From the NCBI RefSeq assembly GCF_030384885.1, contig NZ_CP128613.1: DNA of 64,000 bases. One strand, given 5' to 3'. Both the position numbers and the translations under genes were made by a program. The notes beneath the pieces are model-generated. The model searched no databases. It was not told the origin of the DNA and saw only the letters and a list, made by a program, of their open reading frames with translations. Source of the DNA: Escherichia coli. Its GTDB lineage: Bacteria > Pseudomonadota > Gammaproteobacteria > Enterobacterales > Enterobacteriaceae. Positions 4,144 through 46,512 of the stretch are shown in pieces (the stretch's first letter is position 1; each line of letters starts with the position of its first letter).

Positions 4144-5635
4144 TTACCACCTCCGCAATCCTGGCCTGAGAACTGCTGTCAGGCAGGAAGCTATGGGTGA
4201 TCTGACCTTTTTGCATTACCAAAATCCGGTGGCTTTGATACCACGCTTCTTCAATTTCATCGCAGATCATCAATACCGCAATGCCATGAGCCGCCAGATC
4301 GCTGATAATGCCGTATATTCCTGCTTTGTTGGCGATATCAACACCGACAGTCGGGCTATCGAGAATCAACAGTCGTGGCCCAATCGCCAGCCATTTGGCG
4401 ATCGATACTCGCTGCGCGTTACCCCCGGAAAGCGTATTCACCGGGAGATGTGGGTCAGAGACTTTGATGGTCAATGCCTTAATTAGCCTGTCCACCAGGT
4501 CACGCACTTTAGCTTCACTCAGAAAGCCGAAGCGATCTTTTACCTTGTGAAAAACAGTGCTAATGATGTTGTCTTCAATAGATTGCGCCATCACCAAACC
4601 GCGCGACATGCGATCTTCCGAAACATAACCAATACCGTGGCGGATGGCGTCCTGGTTACTATGCAGTGTAACCGGCTGACCGTTGATGAGGATCTCACCA
4701 GCATCCGGTCGGGTCATACCAAACAGACTCAGACATAATTCCGTGCGCCCCGCACCAAGCAGGCCAACAATCGACACCACTTCGCCCGCTTCCACCCGCA
4801 AGTTAATATTTTGATATTCCCCATGACGACTTAAATTACGCACCTCCAGCACTGGGGTGCTGGATTTTCCCTGCCACAACTCTCGCACCTGATATTCAAA
4901 CTCCTGGCCGGTCATCAGGAAACCGAGTTGTTTTGTGGTCATCTCTGCAGCCGGAAAGGTCCCGACCAGCTCACCATCTTTCAACACTGAAATACGGTCG
5001 GAAACTTCCATCACCTCTTCCAGACGATGACTGACGAAGACCACGCAAATCCCGCGTTCCCGCAATTGATGCACCACCTGTAATAACCCTTGCACTTCCT
5101 GATGGGTCAGCGAAGCGGTTGGTTCATCCATCACGATCAACCGTGCGTCCTGCGCCAGTGCACGGCAAATTGCCACCAGCTGACAGCGGGCAATTGAAAG
5201 CTCAGAAACGAGCGTATCCAGTGGCAATGTGACGTTAATACTGGTCATTGCCGCCTGCGCCACCTCACGCAGACGACGTCGGTTAACAAACAGACCGTGG
5301 TGATAGTGATTCACGGCGATATTCTCCCAGACACTCAGGTTAGGAAATAAAGAGAGGTCCTGATAAATCACCTGAATCCCCTGCGCCACCGAAGCGGCGG
5401 GTGTCAGCTTTGACCAGTTTTTCCCACCAAGCGTAATTTCCGCCCCCTCATCCGGGCGATAAACACCGGACATAATTTTAATCAACGTCGATTTACCACA
5501 GCCGTTTTGCCCGGCAAGGCAGTGCACCTCACCCGACATAAAGTCGAGAGAAACATCGCGCAGCGCTCGCGTGGCATGAAACGTTTTGTTGATATGACGA
5601 AGGGAAAGGAAGGTTTCCATAGCATCCCCTGGCAA
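4136..5635 (-). CDS. ABC transporter ATP-binding protein with two tandem ABC domains
   Basis: 499 aa; Walker A GQNGCGKST, signature LSGGN, Walker B ILDSP and duplicated cassette architecture typical of sugar importers. Probable true start at the internal METFLSLRHINKTF (~5620). Confidence 0.9.
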   Translation of the reverse strand: MPGDAMETFLSLRHINKTFHATRALRDVSLDFMSGEVHCLAGQNGCGKSTLIKIMSGVYRPDEGAEITLGGKNWSKLTPAASVAQGIQVIYQDLSLFPNLSVWENIAVNHYHHGLFVNRRRLREVAQAAMTSINVTLPLDTLVSELSIARCQLVAICRALAQDARLIVMDEPTASLTHQEVQGLLQVVHQLRERGICVVFVSHRLEEVMEVSDRISVLKDGELVGTFPAAEMTTKQLGFLMTGQEFEYQVRELWQGKSSTPVLEVRNLSRHGEYQNINLRVEAGEVVSIVGLLGAGRTELCLSLFGMTRPDAGEILINGQPVTLHSNQDAIRHGIGYVSEDRMSRGLVMAQSIEDNIISTVFHKVKDRFGFLSEAKVRDLVDRLIKALTIKVSDPHLPVNTLSGGNAQRVSIAKWLAIGPRLLILDSPTVGVDIANKAGIYGIISDLAAHGIAVLMICDEIEEAWYQSHRILVMQKGQITHSFLPDSSSQARIAEVVNG

Positions 5636-5668
5636 TAAGAATCGGGGCTTTCGCCCCGAAGAAATGGA

Positions 5669-6655
5669 TTAATAAAGTGAGTCAATATTGTCTTTGTTGA
5701 CCAGTAATACCTTATGGAAACGGATAATTCGCTTATCCATATCTACGTCGGCCTTACCGAGATTCTCCATTTCTAATCCAGGTTTGATCTCTTCACCCTT
5801 CAGCAACGTGCTGGCGACGGCCGCGAGTGCGTAACCTGCAGAGGCCGGATCGTAAGTAATCCCTTCGGTGATATCACCACTTTTAATCAGTGATGCCGCC
5901 TGTGAAGGGATCATCATGCCATAGACTGCGACTTTATTTTTCGCCCGTTTCTCTTTCACCGCACGTCCCGCGCCAATCGGACCGTTTGAACCAAAGGAGA
6001 CAACCGCTTTCAAGTCAGGATAGGTTTTCATGAGGTCCAGTGTGGTACGACGTGAGTCATCCACACTCTCGGCAACCGGCATGCGGCGGGTAACTTCATG
6101 CATATCCGGGTAATGCTCTTTCTGGTATTTCACCAGCAAGTCAGCCCATAAGTTATGCTGCGGCACGGTCAAACTACCCACGTAAATCACATAGCCGCCC
6201 TTGCCACCCATGCGTTTCGCCATATGTTCAACATATTCAGCGGCAAATTTTTCGTTATCAATGATTTCGATATCCCAGTTAGCACTTGGCTGACCGGGGG
6301 ATTCGTTGGTCAGAACCACAATTCCGGCATCTCGCGCTTTTTTGAATACCGGTTCCAGCACGTTGGCATCGTTTGGCACAATTGTAATTGCATTAACCTT
6401 ACGGGCGATTAAATCCTCAATGATTTTAACCTGTTGCGGAGCATCAGTACTTGAAGGTCCCACCTGTGACGCATTAACACCAAAGGCTTTACCCGCCTCG
6501 ACCACACCTTCGCCCATGCGATTAAACCACGGCATACCATCGACTTTAGAGATATTCACCACGACTTTTTCCGCTGCCTGGAGCGGCGAGGAAATTAGCG
6601 CAGCGCCTAATAACAGCGAAGACACCATATTGATAACAAAACGTTTATTCATCAT
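5669..6655 (-). CDS. Periplasmic substrate-binding protein (LsrB/RbsB-like, type I)
   Basis: 328 aa with N-terminal signal peptide (…SSPLQAAEK); overall resemblance to AI-2/ribose-binding proteins including the C-terminal NKDNID motif. Substrate unknown. Confidence 0.8.
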   Translation of the reverse strand: MMNKRFVINMVSSLLLGAALISSPLQAAEKVVVNISKVDGMPWFNRMGEGVVEAGKAFGVNASQVGPSSTDAPQQVKIIEDLIARKVNAITIVPNDANVLEPVFKKARDAGIVVLTNESPGQPSANWDIEIIDNEKFAAEYVEHMAKRMGGKGGYVIYVGSLTVPQHNLWADLLVKYQKEHYPDMHEVTRRMPVAESVDDSRRTTLDLMKTYPDLKAVVSFGSNGPIGAGRAVKEKRAKNKVAVYGMMIPSQAASLIKSGDITEGITYDPASAGYALAAVASTLLKGEEIKPGLEMENLGKADVDMDKRIIRFHKVLLVNKDNIDSLY

Positions 6656-6905
6656 TTCAGCCTCATTGCAGGGTAGTCAGGAAGTGTTCGCCCAAATTAG
6701 CGCGCTGGAGAGAATAAGAATTTTCGAATATTTTTATGCAGAATAAACAGCCCTATTTCAGGCAGCTATTAAAAATTTGGTTATAAATATGGACAAAACG
6801 GGCAGTAACAATAAGTGTGACAATCATCACGTAAAAAATAGTAAAACAAACACAATTAACGATATTTTATGTTTGTGAGTTTATTTCATGCGGATAGAGA
6901 GTTAT

Positions 6906-7316
6906 CTACACAACTTCAATGAGGGCATATTCTTCAAAAATAACGTCCATTTCGGGTGAATAGCTTCCCTCTGCCTGGAAAAAACGACGGTGTTCATTGC
7001 GCCAATATTCAAGACTAAGATCACCTTCACCTTCCTTACGGGCAAGCTCCGCGGTGACATCAGAAAATCGCAGTAAATGCAGGCCAATCACTCTGATAAC
7101 ACATACAGGCTCACCACGGCTATTTTCTACAATCTTATACTCACCAATCATCGGAAATGCGTTGTCTTCAATACATCCTGCCAGCGAACCACAGGAAGCA
7201 GTTTTAACACCAGTTGCAATCAACGTTGCGAGGTAATCGGCCAACGCTGCTGAATCGCCAAAACTACAAAAGGAAGCATGGGGATATTTTTGTGAGATTT
7301 TTTCTTTTATGGTCAT
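6906..7316 (-). CDS. ASCH-domain-like small protein
   Basis: 136-aa ORF of ASCH/PUA-like size and composition; assignment from sequence resemblance only. Confidence 0.55.
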   Translation of the reverse strand: MTIKEKISQKYPHASFCSFGDSAALADYLATLIATGVKTASCGSLAGCIEDNAFPMIGEYKIVENSRGEPVCVIRVIGLHLLRFSDVTAELARKEGEGDLSLEYWRNEHRRFFQAEGSYSPEMDVIFEEYALIEVV

Positions 7317-7613
7317 GAGAATATTTTCGCGATTACGGAAAAAAAATCACATCTTAATTACTGTCGATAACTATCAGCAAGAGGATCATTGGTTTTTCTA
7401 TGTTTAATCTTTTTTATCCGAAGCAGGTCACATTTATGGCTTGATAAATACCTTTGTTAAAACTCACTTTTGTGTATTTCTCTCAAATAATCCCCTGGAA
7501 ATTATGCCGGGAGATTATAAAGTTCAGGATCATTCATTAACAAACCATTCCCGCCCCACTCCCTGGGGCTTAAATCTCTTACTATTCACCGTTGCAGGCG
7601 TTTCAAATTCGTA

Positions 7614-8996
7614 TCAACCTGCCACACTCCCCCACACCAGTTGCCCTTTATGGAACGTTGCGGTTCTCGGCGAGATACGCGCCACCGCCTCGGCGGAACA
7701 GGAGGCGTCCACCAGCACAAAGCTGGCGTCATCCTGCGCTTTAGGCCAGACGCGCTCGCCTTTTTCGTTGAGCGGCAATACATCACCAGTGGCTAAAAAC
7801 AGCGAGCGGGAAAGGTTCTGTTCGTTAGGGCGAATATAGAGCTGCGCGTACAGATTGGCTTTTTCCAGCATGTCGCCCAGGCCGTAAGGCGACCAGTGGT
7901 CAATAACGCTGTCAGTGCCAGTCATTACTTTTACGCCTTTGTCGTGCAGTTGTCTAAGCGGCATATGCAGCGTGCCAATCGGTACCGTCGAGGCAATAGA
8001 AATTTGCTGCGCCGCCATCCGGTTCGCCAGTTCATCTACCTGTTGCTCGTTGAGGGTAGCCAGCGCAAAGGCGTGGCTGATGGTCAGCTTGCCTTTTAGC
8101 TGCGGCGTTTTCTCCACTGTTTCAACCATATAATTGATGGCCGCCACGCCCGCCGGAGTGGTTTCGTGCAGGTGAAGATCGACGCCTTTGTCGTAGTCCA
8201 GCGCAATCTGGAACATGGTGTCGAGGGATTTTTCCATCGCGCCATCAACACTGGTCGGGTCCAGCCCGCCAACGTAATGCGCGCCTGCCTGCATTGCTTC
8301 ACGCATCAAGGGTTCCGATTTCGACAGCAGCAAACCGTGCTGCGGGAAGGCGACAATTTCACACTCGAAGCCCGCCTGACGTCGCGCCAGCACCGCCTGC
8401 AAATTTTGCAGATTTTTCAGGCCGGAAACCGGTTCGATATTGCAGTGGCTGCGGGCAATGGTGGTGCCTTTCGACTGCAATAAATCGATCAGTTTTTCTG
8501 CCCGCTCCTGCGTGTAGGGTTGCAGTTCCGGCAGCATTTTTTGCTCGAGTTTGATCATGTCCTGGATGGTGGTGCCTGCCGGGCGATTGAGCGAGCGCCA
8601 CGGTCCGCCGTAAAAGGTTTTGTCGAGATGAATATGCATGTCGCGAGTAGTGGGCAGCATCAGCTTACCGCCAGCGTCATATTGCGGCAGCGTGGCGTCC
8701 GGATGCTGCTTGTTCTCATGTAGCGCAACAATTTTACCGTCCTGAATCTCCACGGTCTGGCGCGCCGTGCGGGTCTGCACCGCCACACCGTTTTCGTAGT
8801 CAAAACCGGTTTCCAGCAGCACGTTATCAAGATAGTAATGCGGGTCAGTGATTTTCATGGTGTTATTCGCGTCGCAGTGGGTTGTGCCAGAGACCTCCGC
8901 ATGGGCGAATGGCACAGAGGTACCAAACAGCGCGGCGGCGGTGACCATCTTACCGCTCTGGCTCAGAAATTCACGGCGGCTATTGTTTTTTTTCAT
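7614..8996 (-). CDS. yahJ: Tat-exported amidohydrolase/deaminase (metal-dependent hydrolase superfamily)
   Basis: 460 aa; N-terminal twin-arginine motif SRREFL followed by a hydrophobic stretch ending AHA; HxH-type metal-binding motifs of amidohydrolases. Confidence 0.85.
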   Translation of the reverse strand: MKKNNSRREFLSQSGKMVTAAALFGTSVPFAHAEVSGTTHCDANNTMKITDPHYYLDNVLLETGFDYENGVAVQTRTARQTVEIQDGKIVALHENKQHPDATLPQYDAGGKLMLPTTRDMHIHLDKTFYGGPWRSLNRPAGTTIQDMIKLEQKMLPELQPYTQERAEKLIDLLQSKGTTIARSHCNIEPVSGLKNLQNLQAVLARRQAGFECEIVAFPQHGLLLSKSEPLMREAMQAGAHYVGGLDPTSVDGAMEKSLDTMFQIALDYDKGVDLHLHETTPAGVAAINYMVETVEKTPQLKGKLTISHAFALATLNEQQVDELANRMAAQQISIASTVPIGTLHMPLRQLHDKGVKVMTGTDSVIDHWSPYGLGDMLEKANLYAQLYIRPNEQNLSRSLFLATGDVLPLNEKGERVWPKAQDDASFVLVDASCSAEAVARISPRTATFHKGQLVWGSVAG

Positions 8997-9005
8997 CTTA
9001 CGTCC

Positions 9006-9956
9006 TTACGTTTTAATAATATGGGTGCCCGTTTCGCCACGCAGCGCCGCGGGCAGGCATTCCGGCGTGGTGATAATCACTTCTTTACCGCCCTGTTCCA
9101 GGAACGTCAGGCTGGCGATGATTTTTGGCAACATGCTGCCTGGCGGGAAATGCCCTTCCTGCATATAGCGGGTCATGGTGGCAATATCCACCCGATCCAG
9201 CGCCTGCTGCTGCGGTTTGCCAAAATGAATACAGACTTTTTCCACGCCAGTGGTGATCACCAGAATGTCGGCGTGAATTTCACGGGCCAATAGCGCGGTA
9301 GAGAGATCTTTGTCGATAACCGCGTCCACGCTTTGGTAATCCCCCGCTTCACTGCACACCACCGGAATTCCACCGCCGCCCGCGCCAATTACCACAAAGT
9401 CTTGTTGGATCAGCGCCTTAATGGCAGGTGCTTCGACAATACGTTTCGGTTCCGGCGAGGCGACCACGCGGCGATAGCCGCGTCCGGCATCTTCAACAAA
9501 ACGCCAGTCAGGGTTAGTCTTTTGTAATTCGTCACGCTGGCTGTCACTAAAGAATGCGCCGATGGGCTTGGTGGGATGGGCAAACCCCGGATCGTTTTTA
9601 TCCACTTCCACCTGAGTCACCACAGTGACGGCTTTTTTCTCGCCGTGGCGCGCCAGCCGATTGTTCAGCGCCTGTTGGATCAAGTAGCCAATGCCGCCTT
9701 GCGTATCTGCCACACAGTTCGCCAGCGGCGTTAAGGGCAGCCCTTCGCGCTCGTGGGCAATCTCCGCACGGCGTAGATCCAGCCCAACCTGCGGCCCGTT
9801 GCCGTGGGTCAGCACAATGTCGTAATCGGAAGCCAGCATTTCCAGCACCGTATCGGCGACGGCCTTCACCGCCTCCGCCTGATGCTCAATCGACTGGCTG
9901 GCGTTATCTTTGATAATGCTGTTGCCACCAATGGCAACGACCACAAGCTCTTTCAT
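9006..9956 (-). CDS. yahI: Carbamate kinase-like protein
   Basis: The track ORF (9006..10073) carries an N-terminal extension overlapping yahG; the start at MKELVVVAIGGNS gives 316 aa, with a typical carbamate/amino-acid kinase N-terminus. Confidence 0.85.
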   Translation of the reverse strand: MKELVVVAIGGNSIIKDNASQSIEHQAEAVKAVADTVLEMLASDYDIVLTHGNGPQVGLDLRRAEIAHEREGLPLTPLANCVADTQGGIGYLIQQALNNRLARHGEKKAVTVVTQVEVDKNDPGFAHPTKPIGAFFSDSQRDELQKTNPDWRFVEDAGRGYRRVVASPEPKRIVEAPAIKALIQQDFVVIGAGGGGIPVVCSEAGDYQSVDAVIDKDLSTALLAREIHADILVITTGVEKVCIHFGKPQQQALDRVDIATMTRYMQEGHFPPGSMLPKIIASLTFLEQGGKEVIITTPECLPAALRGETGTHIIKT

Positions 9957-10051
9957 ATTGTTATGTCCGCTACAGAGGGTGATGAGGTTATGAAAGTGAG
10001 GTTGCCCCTCTCCCCAGAAGGGAGAAGGGATCGTAAAGTGCACTTTGCAGG

Positions 10052-16335: not shown

Positions 16336-17424
16336 TCAACCACCTGCTTTCATTACCCATTCAGAGATAAATTTATTACCCGGTACTGGCGGAGAGTACA
16401 AATAGCCCTGCAAAAAGTGAACGCCTTTGCCGATCATTAAATCCGCCTGCTCCTGGGTTTCTACCCCTTCCGCCACGATACTCAGACCAGGCTTACGCGC
16501 CAGTTCGACAATATTGTCCACAATATGACCGGAGATTTCGTCAACACTCGCCATTTGCACAAACGACTTGTCAATTTTAATAAAATCGACCGGAAACGCC
16601 TGCAGATAACGATAGGTCGCATAACCCGTACCAAAGTCATCCAGCGCAAAGGTAATGTTATGCTGATGAAGGCTGTCAAATATCGCTCTGGCTTCTGGCG
16701 TTACCGGAATGGGGTTGCGTTCCGTTAGCTCAAGAACCAGCTTGATTTTATCGTTACCTAATTTCTTGACCAGGTTCAGACACTCTTTTTCAAATCCTGC
16801 GGCCAAAAAACATCCTGCCGAGACGTTGATTCCAATATGGAAATTATCCGGCAGCAAATGTTTTACTGGCATCAGAATATCCGCAGTCTGTTTCATCAGC
16901 TGGCGAGTCATTATGACAATAAGACCGGATGACTCCGCCAGAGGAATAAACTGATCCGGTGGGATAATTCCCGTTTGCGGATGTTCCCAGCGGACAAGCA
17001 CTTCACAGCCCGTCAGTACCCCAGTCTGCGCGCAGAAAACCGGTTGGATCCACGGTTTGAATTCGTGATTTTCCAACGCCAGACTGATGGCTTCAGGCGT
17101 GACGATATGGTGATAGTGATTATCATTAATATATTTGTGACTATTATTACCCGTGGCGGATATGATCTCCGGATTGTACTGAAAGAAAATATCCCGCCAG
17201 AAAGTAATATCGCTCTGAATCCCCAGTTTCTCAAAGAGCTGTTTCTTTTGATGTGAAATGGTCTTTGCACTGCGATTTCTGTACTGTGATATTTCTGTTA
17301 CAGACATTCCCTGCATCAGCAGCTTGAGTAGCAGTCGTTCTTTCTCGGATACGCTACCAGGCAATGACAAATGAACCGTTGTACCGAACTCTTGCAGAAA
17401 AACACGAAAATCACATGAATTCAT
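16336..17424 (-). CDS. pdeL: c-di-GMP phosphodiesterase / transcription regulator (LuxR-type HTH + EAL domain)
   Basis: N-terminal LuxR-type HTH, C-terminal EAL domain (ELTE…DDFGTGY…KIDKSF). Start trimmed to MNSCDF. Confidence 0.85.
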   Translation of the reverse strand: MNSCDFRVFLQEFGTTVHLSLPGSVSEKERLLLKLLMQGMSVTEISQYRNRSAKTISHQKKQLFEKLGIQSDITFWRDIFFQYNPEIISATGNNSHKYINDNHYHHIVTPEAISLALENHEFKPWIQPVFCAQTGVLTGCEVLVRWEHPQTGIIPPDQFIPLAESSGLIVIMTRQLMKQTADILMPVKHLLPDNFHIGINVSAGCFLAAGFEKECLNLVKKLGNDKIKLVLELTERNPIPVTPEARAIFDSLHQHNITFALDDFGTGYATYRYLQAFPVDFIKIDKSFVQMASVDEISGHIVDNIVELARKPGLSIVAEGVETQEQADLMIGKGVHFLQGYLYSPPVPGNKFISEWVMKAGG

Positions 17425-18299
17425 GAACACACCTTTTATCTTTTATCGCTGTTCAGTATGAGTGATTACCTGTGGATTCCTGAGCACACATAAGGGGTAA
17501 CCATAAACATTAGCGATGCCATACGTATAACATCCCACATCACTATCAAGAAGATTATCTTTACCTCTGATGCTCGCTCAAAAACAGTTACGCTAAATAC
17601 CTTAAAAAGGTAATCACAAGTCAAACTCAGGAGATAATCACGCAAGAATGCAATATTAAAATTCAGATACTCATTTTTGGTAATAAAGAAGTAGTTGGAC
17701 TATTTCGATATTTATAATTTCCCACTACGTATTGACGCCCATTCATGAGTAAAGGCGCATTATATGAATTTAACAATCCAGATCAACTGAAAATACCTCA
17801 ACCTCATAAACACATAGCGTCAACATTCAATGACATAATGAGTAAAGATGTTGGTTATGCATACACGTCATTACTCTATGCCAATCCCTTAACAACCTGC
17901 TTTTTAAGACTGAATCCATTCAGCAATAGATAGCCAACATTATAACAATGACAATAAAAACAATATTTAAAACAATCAATAAAATATCAGACACAAACAA
18001 TTAAACCTTAAACAACAAACAGTTACATTGATTTTAGTTGATTTGCGCTATGCGTTCCCCATGAATAAAGCGTCATTTCAAATTAGCACCAATATTTACA
18101 TTAAATAAGACTAAGCTTATTGAACATTCACAACAGTCCAAACGTAGTGTTTGGGCTTCAATAGTTCTTTTCTTTTTTATTATCTGTTGCCTGGCAATCA
18201 TCAATCGATACTAAGGGCTTAACTGTACAGATATAACGTATCAAGAGGTAAGAGAAACCACGCCATATGCAGACATGGCGCGGTTTTATGCAATAACAA

Positions 18300-20333
18300 T
18301 CACGCGTCCGGGAACATTACGCTATTACCCGGCGCTTCACGATGGAGATGGATAAAGTTTAGGTGCCGCTCGTACTGATCGAGAATATCGGTGATCACCT
18401 GCTCTTTGCTGTAGTCCATCAGGTCGTTACCCTGGCTGCCTTCTAACAGGAAGGTTTCCAGCCGGTAATAGGTCGATTTCCCGCTACGTGCGCGGTAGGT
18501 AAAGCCCGGCACCGAATATTGCTGTGGCCAAATCTGATAGACAAAGTTTTGCTCTTCACCCATATGCACCAGCAAATCCAGATGCCCTAACTGTTGTCCC
18601 TCTTCCGGCGGCAGGCTTTTTAGCTCCACGTACGCGCCGCGCAACCGCAGCTCCTGCGCCACTTCTTCCATTGCCGGGTAACAGACCGTCTCCATCATCT
18701 GTTTGGTGTAACGCGTGCCCGGATAATTCATCAGGCGCGAGAGACGTTTTTTCCAGCTCAGGCGATCCTGAAGCCCCAGCGGTCGCGGCGCGGTATCACG
18801 GTTGGCACTTTCACGGCGGTAATCTTCTACCTTCAGAGATTTATACAATCCCGCCATCACGAAGAAAATCACAAAGCTGAACGGCAGCCCCATGATTACC
18901 GTGGTGTTTTGCAGCGCGGATATCCCGTTGGTCATCAGCATGCCAAGCGTCAGCAGACCAATCGCCACCGACCAGAAGACGCGCAGCCAGCCGGGGGCGT
19001 CGCTGTTGATATCTTTAAGCTGCGAGGTGAAATTCCCCAGCACCAGCGCGCCGGAGTCCGCCGAGGTCACATAAAACAGCAGGCCAGTAATGGTGGCAAC
19101 CGAGGCGCTAAAGGTAAACGCCGGATACTGCGCCAGCAGGCTGTAGAAGCCGCGCTCCGGATGGACCATCGCTTCCTCGGCAAATGCCGCGCCGCCGTGG
19201 ATGATTTCATACAGCGCGCTATTGCCGAATACCGAGAGCCATAACAGCGTGAAGGTAAACGGAATAATCAACGTGCCCAGCACGAACTGGCGAATGGTGC
19301 GTCCACGCGAGATACGCGCCAGGAACAGGCCGACAAACGGCGACCAGGCTACCCACCATGCCCAGAAAAAGAGCGTCCAGTTATTCATCCACTCAACCGG
19401 GCGGTCAAAGGCGAAACTGTTGAGCGTCATGCCCATAAAGCGGTTAACGTAATCGCCAACGTTCAGCACCAGCGCATTAAGCAGGAACGAGGTGTCGCCC
19501 ATAAACAGCACGAACAGGATCAACCCCAGCGCCAGTGCGACATTGAGTTCAGACAATACGCGAATGCCTTTGTCGACACCGGAAGTCACCGAGATAGTCG
19601 CGATGATTACCGACAGCGCGATCAGCGCCGCTTTCGCCGCCATTGAATCCGGGATATCAAACAGTACGCTCAGGCCATAGTTAAGCTGCACCACGCCAAT
19701 GCCGAGCGTGGTGGCAATCCCGAAGATGGTGCCGATCACCGCTGCAATATCCACCGAGTGACCAATCGGCCCGTTGATCCGTTTACCGAAAATCGGATAC
19801 AGCGCCGAGCGGATCGTGAGCGGCAAATTATAACGATAGCTGAAGTATCCGAGCGCCATGCCCATCAGCGCATACATCGACCAGCCGGTTAAGCCGTAGT
19901 GAAACAGCGTCCAGACCATCGCCTGACGCGCCGCTTCCATCGTCTGCCCTGCCCCTTCCGGCGGCTGCATATACTGCGTGACCGGCTCAGCAACGGAGAA
20001 GAACATCAGATCAATACCAATCCCGGCAGCGAACAGCATCGCCGCCCAGCTCAGTAGACTGAATTCCGGTTTGGATTGTTCAGGCCCGAGCTTCACCGAA
20101 CCAAAACGCGAACAAGCGATGCAGACCACAAAGACAATATAGAGCGTTGCCGCCAGCAGATAGTACCAACCGAAGGTTTTAGAAACCCAGTCCAGCGTGC
20201 GGCCAATCCACAGGGCCGAGAAGTCGCGAAACAGGATCGTTGTCAGGGAAAACAACAAAATCAGTCCGGCGGAGGTGTAAAACACCACCGGATTGATTTT
20301 GTCCTTTTCCCTGCTGTGCGAAAGGTCTGTCAT
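18300..20333 (-). CDS. betT: High-affinity choline transporter (BCCT family)
   Basis: 677-aa polytopic membrane protein with a BCCT-type core and long C-terminal cytoplasmic tail; divergent from betIBA. Confidence 0.95.
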   Translation of the reverse strand: MTDLSHSREKDKINPVVFYTSAGLILLFSLTTILFRDFSALWIGRTLDWVSKTFGWYYLLAATLYIVFVVCIACSRFGSVKLGPEQSKPEFSLLSWAAMLFAAGIGIDLMFFSVAEPVTQYMQPPEGAGQTMEAARQAMVWTLFHYGLTGWSMYALMGMALGYFSYRYNLPLTIRSALYPIFGKRINGPIGHSVDIAAVIGTIFGIATTLGIGVVQLNYGLSVLFDIPDSMAAKAALIALSVIIATISVTSGVDKGIRVLSELNVALALGLILFVLFMGDTSFLLNALVLNVGDYVNRFMGMTLNSFAFDRPVEWMNNWTLFFWAWWVAWSPFVGLFLARISRGRTIRQFVLGTLIIPFTFTLLWLSVFGNSALYEIIHGGAAFAEEAMVHPERGFYSLLAQYPAFTFSASVATITGLLFYVTSADSGALVLGNFTSQLKDINSDAPGWLRVFWSVAIGLLTLGMLMTNGISALQNTTVIMGLPFSFVIFFVMAGLYKSLKVEDYRRESANRDTAPRPLGLQDRLSWKKRLSRLMNYPGTRYTKQMMETVCYPAMEEVAQELRLRGAYVELKSLPPEEGQQLGHLDLLVHMGEEQNFVYQIWPQQYSVPGFTYRARSGKSTYYRLETFLLEGSQGNDLMDYSKEQVITDILDQYERHLNFIHLHREAPGNSVMFPDA

Positions 20334-30786: not shown

Positions 30787-30894
30787 ACTCAAAATCAGAC
30801 GCCAGGACAAATATTCTGGCGTCTCAGAGAAAAGAATCTTATTAATTCCTTGTTATTATATAACTTCTTAATCACTTCATTGATGGTATTTTAT

Positions 30895-31131
30895 ATGTTT
30901 AAAAAACCTGTTTTATTTGCAACACTATTATCTGGCGTTATGGCATTTTCCACCAATGCAGATGATAAAATAATTCTGAAACATATCAGCGTCTCGTCAG
31001 TATCAGCATCACCGACAGTTCTGGAGGATGCCATTGCTGATATAGCCAGAAAATATAATGCTTCATCCTGGAAAGTCACATCGATGCGAATTGATAATAA
31101 TTCAACCGCAACAGCAGTATTGTATAAATAA
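30895..31131 (+). CDS. rclB: Small periplasmic protein (RclB-like)
   Basis: 78 aa from MFKKPVLFATLLS with a signal peptide. Confidence 0.75.
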   Translation: MFKKPVLFATLLSGVMAFSTNADDKIILKHISVSSVSASPTVLEDAIADIARKYNASSWKVTSMRIDNNSTATAVLYK

Positions 31132-44972: not shown

Positions 44973-45206
44973 CCTGGAAATATATTCTTTAAGTTCATTT
45001 AAAGCCAACTGCCTGACGTTTCTCTCTGAATATTCCATTATATTCATGTTGATTTATTGACCAACTTCTCCCCTGTATGCTGGTATCAACTCTCTTTTAG
45101 ACTGAACAAGCCACTCCGCCCCCTCCCTTTGCGGAGCAGCCTGCATTTACACTCAAACTGTTAAGATGATAAATGTGGTAAATCTGTTGGTACTAACATA
45201 AAACGT

Positions 45207-45437
45207 TTACGCCACAGGAACAGCCTGATCCACCGGTAACCCCATCGCCGACGTTCGAGTGCCAGTTAGAGTAACGCGCACAGATGACTGCACGCAGTGC
45301 CCTGTCAAAGAGGCCATCGTTCCTGTGACAGCTGGCAGCCTTCGTTTAACTTCACTTAATTTGGCTCTTGGGGGGCTTACCGAACAGATGACGTAGTCAC
45401 ACCTATTCAATTTTTCACCACTTATTGGAGTAAACAC
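45207..45437 (-). CDS. Small hypothetical ORF (possibly ykgL-like)
   Basis: 76-aa ORF in the rpmJ2-ecpR intergenic region; no motif support. Confidence 0.25.
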   Translation of the reverse strand: MFTPISGEKLNRCDYVICSVSPPRAKLSEVKRRLPAVTGTMASLTGHCVQSSVRVTLTGTRTSAMGLPVDQAVPVA

Positions 45438-45900
45438 CCATAACCATTTTGTGCGGCATGTTAATCCATTAAAACACCTTATTGATTGTCAAATCCTCTT
45501 TAATGATGGCCAATAATAGTTTTATGTTCTATTTATTATCATTAAAACTTGTTTTTTTACTAGTCGAGCACAAAACGCATTAAGACTATTCCTAACACCT
45601 CAGGGCAAAGTTCCTGGCTAATATAAAATGTAAGTAAGAATTGAACGTTATATTGCCAATAACCTTATGAAACTGAATGTCTTTTTCTTCTTATCAAAAA
45701 AGCAATATTTTCATTTTTAGTAAATATTGACTTAACCATGGAATTCCTTTTCTGTTCACATATTGACACTCATCAGGAAAAAAACATAAATTTAAGCCCA
45801 ATCGAAAATAATTAAAACTTAATCTCGTTTAACCTATATTGATATGTGCTACGTATCTTATTTACTTCCGATTTACTAACAACACTGAATGTACCTGTAA

Positions 45901-46512
<612 letters not shown>

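Follow-up and report, generated by a model that had tools for sequence, protein, structure and literature searches.

The window analysed here is a stretch of 64,000 nt of Escherichia coli DNA (contig NZ_CP128613.1) that carries pdeL at 16336-17424 and betT at 18300-20333, both on the minus strand according to the PGAP annotation of strain 2013C-4282, which is 100% identical over the intervening DNA. Nothing is annotated between pdeL and betT in that PGAP record. The identities of the two genes and the long gap between them, both proposed in a first-pass annotation made from the sequence alone, are therefore confirmed: at 875 bp, this gap is the longest of the 43 annotated gaps in the 50 kb compared, followed by one of 824 bp between ykgL and ecpR. 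The interval originally delimited, 17431-18299, stands as a gap but is displaced at its pdeL edge, where 17431 corresponds to an upstream GTG and the annotated gene extends only to 17424. With both genes on the minus strand at the PGAP positions, the interval consists of the DNA 3' of betT and, after it, the DNA upstream of pdeL. Locus tags in 2013C-4282 skip from C6996_RS12205 (pdeL) to C6996_RS12215 (betT), so that a feature tagged RS12210 was apparently removed when this interval was annotated. The features assigned to it, in window coordinates, are as follows:

17425-17751, minus strand: inferred 5' untranslated region of pdeL, approximately 325 nt (follows from the promoter assignment)
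17759-17786, minus strand: probable pdeL sigma-70 promoter, TTGATC-N16-TATAAT (best promoter match in the interval, 10/12)
17896-17909, minus strand: putative proximal, Cra-dependent PdeL box (CDB) region (K-12 oligonucleotide and alignment)
17910-17924, minus strand: Cra box GCTGAATGGATTCAG (no difference from the Cra-box portion of the K-12 CB/CDB oligonucleotide)
17920-17994, minus strand: yahV allele of 24 codons and a stop codon, encoding MSDILLIVLNIVFIVIVIMLAIYC, a single hydrophobic helix (position and frame match to yahV as annotated in K-12-like genomes)
17930-18020, plus strand: flagged A-rich stretch, which reads as T-rich along the pdeL-sense strand (highest AT content within the pdeL control region, between CIB and Cra box)
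17995-18009, minus strand: putative yahV translation-initiation region (sequence and alignment; role inferred)
18103-18120, no strand assigned: distal PdeL box (CIB), palindrome AATAAG-N6-CTTATT (the CIB oligonucleotide maps to 18067-18134)
18257-18279, minus strand: betT intrinsic-terminator-like hairpin (terminator scan; directly after the betT stop codon)

The interval has a GC content of 34% over 869 bp, compared to 48.5% for the 64-kb window; an AT content this far above background over several hundred base pairs is what is looked for in an H-NS-silenced region. The stretch at 17930-18020 contains 53 A, 18 T, 17 C and 3 G in 91 nt (22% GC) and includes one A5, three A4 and several A3 runs, with a weak 12-bp period at 17952-17984 reported by Tandem Repeats Finder. 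Its single-strand A or T count is unmatched elsewhere in the 64 kb (all nine 91-nt segments that reach it lie within 17925-18027), and equal AT-richness occurs at only two other places. The first of these is 45468-45559, inside the ykgL-ecpR gap (45147-45969), and the second is 30824-30933, between rclA and rclB. The earlier description of an A-rich stretch built from AACA/ACAA words is borne out: this is the most A-biased DNA in the window, and the feature is real and beyond chance fluctuation. The ACAA/AACA texture arises because the plus strand is the reverse complement of the ATT, GTT, TTT and TTG codon runs of yahV.

Regulatory sites characterized in K-12 were placed on the window using the oligonucleotides in the available primer table of Reinders et al. 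together with a three-allele alignment. A Cra box and a CIB, as expected of a Cra/PdeL-activated promoter, are both present and both match K-12 oligonucleotide sequences. No other sequence in the window matches the Cra consensus as well as this Cra box, which encloses the yahV stop codon (17920-17922). It is nearly invariant, with one T/A position, across both E. coli haplotypes (A and B), E. fergusonii and E. albertii. The CIB palindrome, found in all 11 of the E. coli haplotype-B loci examined, is centred 196 nt upstream of the Cra-box centre. The oligonucleotide spanning the Cra box and CDB maps to 17896-17925, but the CDB half reads GTCTTAAAAAGCAGG here as opposed to GTCTTAATGAGTGGG in K-12, with several differences after GTCTTAA. 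Since the K-12 oligonucleotides map to either side of it, the A-rich stretch lies exactly between the two PdeL boxes.

The probable pdeL promoter falls inside 17747-17925, which corresponds to the K-12 fragment used for RNA polymerase recruitment. The distance from the Cra-box centre to the -10 element is 153 nt in both the window and K-12, 150 nt in a second E. coli form of the locus that carries ehaA (discussed below), 156 nt in E. fergusonii and 151 nt in E. albertii, and the -35 and -10 blocks are conserved across these five loci. With the promoter placed at 17786-17759, pdeL transcription would start near 17751 and the leader would be approximately 325 nt long. An open reading frame (ORF) of 62 codons on the plus strand, 17745-17933, runs antisense to this promoter. 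It is open in all 11 sequences in which it was found and has no protein family match; comparison to K-12 gives 14 changes in nonsynonymous codons and 1 synonymous change, and the part of it that is conserved, the first 40 codons, falls on the pdeL promoter. We consider that it is probably not a gene.

The window allele and the K-12 pdeL (yahA) region share the same locus, the same order of elements, an identical Cra box and identical -35 and -10 elements, the CIB palindrome, and a leader that is 97-100% identical. They differ chiefly between the Cra box and the CIB, where the window allele is 12-14% divergent, as well as in the CDB half-site and in 7 of the 24 YahV residues. Calculated per 100 nt for 17830-18129, this divergence ranks high within the 0-18% observed for neighbouring genes, whereas over 17330-17729 it is 0-3% per 100 nt. 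Among the three aligned alleles there is no indel except for one base just upstream of pdeL. PdeL itself is identical to the K-12-like protein at 359 of 362 residues, and its first 92 residues, including those aligned with the DNA-binding domain, are unchanged. The leader (17431-17729) is nearly invariant between window and K-12 (0-3%) while the flanking DNA is up to 14% divergent; no counterpart of it was detectable in the ehaA-type locus, E. fergusonii or E. albertii, and it has no Rfam match.

Searches for further motifs in the interval were negative or uninformative. Rfam returned nothing at E values up to 1 for either strand of 17300-18400, and no strict IHF or Fis consensus site was found in the interval. 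The H-NS nucleation 10-mer (TCGATAAATT-like) is not enriched: two sites with two mismatches are present (17767-17776 and 17976-17985), and the window-wide count is that expected by chance. Chen et al. 2007 (PMC2189734) predicted a Fur-site cluster at a distance of 510 bp from the yahA start, on its upstream side, which corresponds to approximately 17934-17994 of the window, in the A-rich stretch; this prediction may merely reflect AT-rich hexamers.

In K-12, H-NS, Fis, IHF and stalled RNA polymerase have all been found on the yahA/pdeL regulatory region (literature including Grainger et al. 2006), and the low expression of pdeL has been attributed to H-NS. According to the available text of Reinders et al. 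[quoted passage not shown] Scrambling of the CIB leads to loss of cooperativity and hysteresis, and the model proposed in that text is of a PdeL tetramer that engages both boxes, possibly looping the DNA, and displaces H-NS. By analogy, occupancy by these proteins, derepression in an hns background, co-activation by Cra and PdeL, and synthesis of YahV presumably hold for the window allele as well. The first-pass annotation had proposed a nucleoid-protein platform controlling pdeL, with DNA curvature as its basis. The platform is supported by the published K-12 work (H-NS, Fis and IHF binding and hns derepression) and would by analogy apply here; it is already known for the K-12 allele. The proposed basis is not supported, as described below.

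We consider it very likely that the interval is a pdeL control region of the K-12 type in which the tract between CIB and CDB is straight, AT-rich, H-NS-silencing DNA. In the direction of pdeL transcription, the order would be the betT terminator, the CIB, an AT-rich tract of approximately 180 bp with the A-rich run as its core, the Cra box and CDB, then, approximately 150 bp further on, the TTGATC-N16-TATAAT promoter, the leader of approximately 325 nt and pdeL; yahV would run through the tract and end inside the Cra box. H-NS would bind the straight and very AT-rich tract, spread and silence pdeL, with Fis, IHF and stalled RNA polymerase acting at the same region as in K-12. The tract would also serve as the spacer bridged by a PdeL tetramer from CIB to CDB, countering H-NS at low c-di-GMP. 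The A-run itself, rather than its flanks, may be the place where H-NS nucleates, and high AT content is sufficient to explain H-NS binding. This explanation is supported by the match of the K-12 oligonucleotides (CIB, Cra box/CDB and RNA polymerase fragment) to conserved window sequence flanking the tract, and by the freedom from indels of the three aligned alleles around the tract in spite of 12-14% substitution. It is weakened by the chance-level frequency of the H-NS 10-mer, by the negative outcome of the strict IHF and Fis consensus scans, and by the alteration of the CDB half relative to K-12. As for the loop, the CIB-to-Cra distance is 196 nt in E. coli and 169 nt in E. fergusonii, and both the ehaA-type locus and E. 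albertii have the PdeL-box palindrome on the downstream side of the Cra box, at +39. Because the distance and the side of the palindrome vary between loci in this way, there is no conservation of a fixed looping geometry.

An alternative is that the A-runs form intrinsically curved DNA and that the curvature itself recruits H-NS or Fis. H-NS is classically held to favour curved DNA (PMC1636352, introduction), and the runs lie, like phased A-tracts, in an upstream regulatory region bound by nucleoid proteins. Curvature was predicted with a single dinucleotide wedge model (Bolshoy-type angles), using one positive control (phased A6) and two negative controls (unphased and random). The phased-A6 control gave 28 degrees per turn and an end-to-end/contour ratio of 0.43 (0.429), compared to approximately 4 degrees per turn for the unphased and random controls. 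This prediction, which had been suggested as a check, places the stretch at the average: its ratio is 0.979, versus 0.961 ± 0.027 for its own dinucleotide-preserving shuffles, and it ranks at the 50th percentile among all 91-nt segments of the 64 kb, so that predicted curvature does not rise above either background. Over the whole span from CIB to Cra box the ratio is 0.936 (44th percentile of the window), which is likewise straighter than the mean of its own shuffles. Locally, predicted curvature reaches the 90th-94th percentile of the window at 17920-17959, but 17980-18020 falls in the lowest 1-20%, and the interval has its two highest peaks elsewhere than in the stretch, at 17660-17699 and 18140-18159. 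Successive A-runs are separated by 13, 12, 14, 8, 7 and 7 nt, where helical phasing would need 10-11, and the 12-bp period reported above is the only one detected. The runs are short and off the helical repeat, and in this model the stretch is no more bent than its shuffled counterparts, contrary to the earlier proposal of intrinsically curved DNA. We regard recruitment by curvature as highly doubtful: the A-run should not be cited as curved DNA, and AT-richness alone accounts for nucleoid-protein binding.

The statement that the interval lacks a convincing gene was wrong. The minus strand of the stretch carries an intact yahV ORF, unannotated in the strain, with a GTG start at 17994 and a TGA stop at 17920-17922. 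It occupies the orthologous position, strand and frame, aligning codon for codon with the 75-nt gene annotated as 'protein YahV'. K-12 yahV (b4730) likewise lies between betT and pdeL on the same strand, has the same length and GTG start, ends with TGC-TGA inside the Cra box, and encodes one hydrophobic helix. The K-12 protein (24 residues) has been detected by immunoblotting of a chromosomal SPA-tagged version (VanOrsdel et al. 2018, PMC6001520, Table 1), and so an expressed gene, which the first-pass annotation had named as a discovery that would count against its view, does exist in the interval for the K-12 allele. Upstream of the start codon, AAGG at 18006-18009 precedes the GTG by 11 nt; a second possible start, an in-frame TTG at 17998-18000 that K-12 lacks, follows the AAGG at 5 nt. 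The peptide encoded in the window, MSDILLIVLNIVFIVIVIMLAIYC, is identical to that of K-12, MCDILLNVLNIVFIGIAIILVIIC, at 17 of 24 positions.

YahV has been described as specific to phylogroups A, B1 and C, and a role in osmotic stress or motility has been proposed from its gene neighbourhood (PMC9976479). Because an intact ORF is present in this strain, the phylogroup restriction is at least partly an effect of annotation. Approximately 1718 genomes carry a K-12-like allele that is annotated as YahV, approximately 292 carry an intermediate allele annotated as 'hypothetical protein', and approximately 1714 carry window-like alleles that are without annotation by PGAP. Annotation pipelines miss a detected small protein in about half of the genomes that carry it, and this protein evolves like unconstrained DNA (discussed below); the case bears on how small-protein genes are counted.

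It could be argued that the stretch encodes a functional membrane peptide, YahV, and that selection for a hydrophobic helix, rather than for properties of the DNA, shapes the sequence. Along with the K-12 immunoblot and the proposed role in osmotic stress or motility, several properties of the ORF are consistent with this. It is intact in 11 of 12 haplotype-B sequences (the window and 11 loci), which encode five protein variants; its mean Kyte-Doolittle hydropathy is maintained (2.72 in the window versus 2.68); 17 of its 23 codons have T as the second base; and no indel falls in the yahV part of the three aligned alleles. However, all eight changes between the window and K-12 are nonsynonymous and none is synonymous, so that purifying selection on the peptide was not detected in this comparison. 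The flanking genes show the opposite pattern, with 30 synonymous and 3 nonsynonymous changes in pdeL and 105 and 2 in betT (together 135 and 5; Fisher p = 3e-10 versus yahV). A complete ORF of at least 24 codons occurs in 18% of shuffles of the tract, Pfam and NCBIfam searches with five ORFs of the interval gave nothing above threshold, and the twelfth haplotype-B sequence has an IS1 inside yahV.

The distribution of the ORF also argues against selection on the peptide. In the loci examined from ehaA-type E. coli, E. fergusonii and E. albertii, the DNA preceding the Cra box contains no yahV-equivalent ORF, but the first two retain a T-biased, AT-rich tract. Over the 90 nt that precede the Cra box, AT content is 77-80% in each of the five loci compared, and T content is 51-58% in four of the five; this AT-richness is maintained in both E. 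coli haplotypes (A and B), E. fergusonii and E. albertii even though the sequence is not alignable. That AT-richness is kept while the sequence cannot be aligned and the ORF is missing in three loci points to a constraint on the DNA and not on the peptide. Judging from these comparisons, YahV is probably not what shapes the DNA, as the composition is conserved and the peptide is not, and we consider selection for a functional membrane peptide to be an unlikely explanation of the sequence. Both the apparent lack of purifying selection on yahV relative to K-12 and its apparent absence from the ehaA-type, E. fergusonii and E. albertii loci examined are new here.

Taken as it was written, the observation of an A-rich gap is largely ordinary, because the interval is the studied H-NS-silenced control region of pdeL and the A-run is the reverse strand of yahV. 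It adds little to what is published for K-12, namely H-NS silencing via an AT-rich upstream region and a small gene within it. The unconstrained evolution of yahV and a promoter shared with ehaA are modest side results.

In the second form of the locus, represented by strain ERL06-2503 (positions 5342-10039 of fetched locus L031), betT is followed by 573 bp, ehaA (3984 bp, encoding an autotransporter adhesin of O-island 15), 141 bp and pdeL. The ehaA-type upstream region is present in 1402 of 5426 E. coli genomes and the yahV stretch in 3720. Genomes of the ehaA type were first recognized as those matching solely the 42-nt betT terminator of the interval (18258-18299), the only part of it that the two types have in common at high identity. 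The 573-bp region upstream of ehaA (z0402; O157:H7-type) resembles the pdeL control region. It contains the same Cra box after a T-rich tract, a PdeL-box-like palindrome (AATAAGACGATTCTTAT at +39) and, 150 nt past the Cra box, TTGATT-N16-TATAAT within a block conserved with the window, and its neighbours are also betT and pdeL. It differs in that the module precedes the adhesin gene, with pdeL following 141 bp after ehaA, in that the palindrome lies at +39 with no upstream CIB, and in the absence of a yahV ORF. The Cra-box/promoter module of pdeL is therefore the one found ahead of ehaA in those 1402 genomes, which is new here. Our literature search found no paper that names ehaA together with pdeL or yahA, though the link may still have been reported.

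Other species were reached via PdeL homologues and their contigs. In E. albertii (L027, 2287-3500), decayed fragments of ehaA lie between the conserved promoter and pdeL (E values down to 9e-61). Only the last bases of ehaA, plus a spacer before pdeL, are left in E. fergusonii (L028, 2842-3500), which keeps a CIB-like palindrome, the T-rich tract, the Cra box and the promoter. In Atlantibacter hermannii (L029, 1-3500), an autotransporter gene lies directly upstream of the pdeL homologue; there is no yahV ORF at this locus, and the autotransporter gene has no match in the interval. A scan of the genome collection with the 18-mer TGCTGAATGGATTCAGTC gave 15 matches, all in unrelated taxa and none in Escherichia, where we estimate that approximately 9 would be expected by chance.

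The simplest reading of these loci is that the module ancestrally preceded ehaA and that ehaA was lost several times. Carried further, the pdeL promoter would be a captured adhesin promoter, an H-NS-prone module that originally served ehaA, with pdeL lying further downstream, and yahV would be a recent chance ORF; we regard the case for this as evenly balanced. The captured module would comprise the AT-rich tract, the Cra box, the PdeL box and, approximately 150 nt further, TTGATY-N16-TATAAT. The ehaA-type E. coli genomes would preserve the ancestral arrangement, and E. albertii would retain it with ehaA in decay, while ehaA would have been lost from approximately 3700 E. coli genomes and separately from E. 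fergusonii, leaving the module to control pdeL directly. If this is true, the biofilm adhesin EhaA of O157-type strains would be under the control of Cra, PdeL/c-di-GMP and H-NS, linking a c-di-GMP switch to an enterohaemorrhagic E. coli (EHEC) adhesin, and the locus would be a testable case of regulatory DNA outliving the gene that it served. On this view yahV, confined to E. coli, would have originated recently as a chance ORF of the T-rich tract, and its translation would place no constraint on its sequence. No ehaA remnant was found in the window interval by either blastn or tblastn; haplotype B is therefore not a simple deletion of ehaA.

The same loci could instead be read as the record of an evolutionary scar, in which the gap is mostly neutral AT-rich DNA remaining after the loss of ehaA and function is confined to the Cra box and promoter. 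The Cra box and promoter do stand in front of ehaA in the ehaA-type locus, the remains of ehaA in E. albertii and E. fergusonii are what such loss would leave, and the divergence at 17830-18129 is at the high end of that of neighbouring genes. Against this, the interval shows no detectable trace of ehaA at the DNA or protein level, the leader is nearly invariant between alleles, and AT-richness upstream of the Cra box is kept across species. Moreover, the CIB lies in haplotype-B-specific DNA and is functional in K-12, where, in the available text of Reinders et al., scrambling it has the effects on cooperativity and hysteresis noted above. We consider a neutral scar rather improbable, and favour a tract that is maintained as AT-rich, H-NS-silencing DNA upstream of pdeL.

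Insertion sequences were observed in or beside the pdeL upstream region in four of eight additional E. coli loci (corresponding to approximately 17350-17960 of the window), a frequency that is biased, as the loci were picked at the edges of identity classes. They belong to the IS3 family in EcPF40 and PCN061 and are IS1 in KFu019 and 23CRST042, the last being the insertion inside yahV. In the fetched loci, these elements are located from approximately position 1161 in L004, from approximately 1301 in L009, from approximately 874 in L010, and at 748-1445 in L011.
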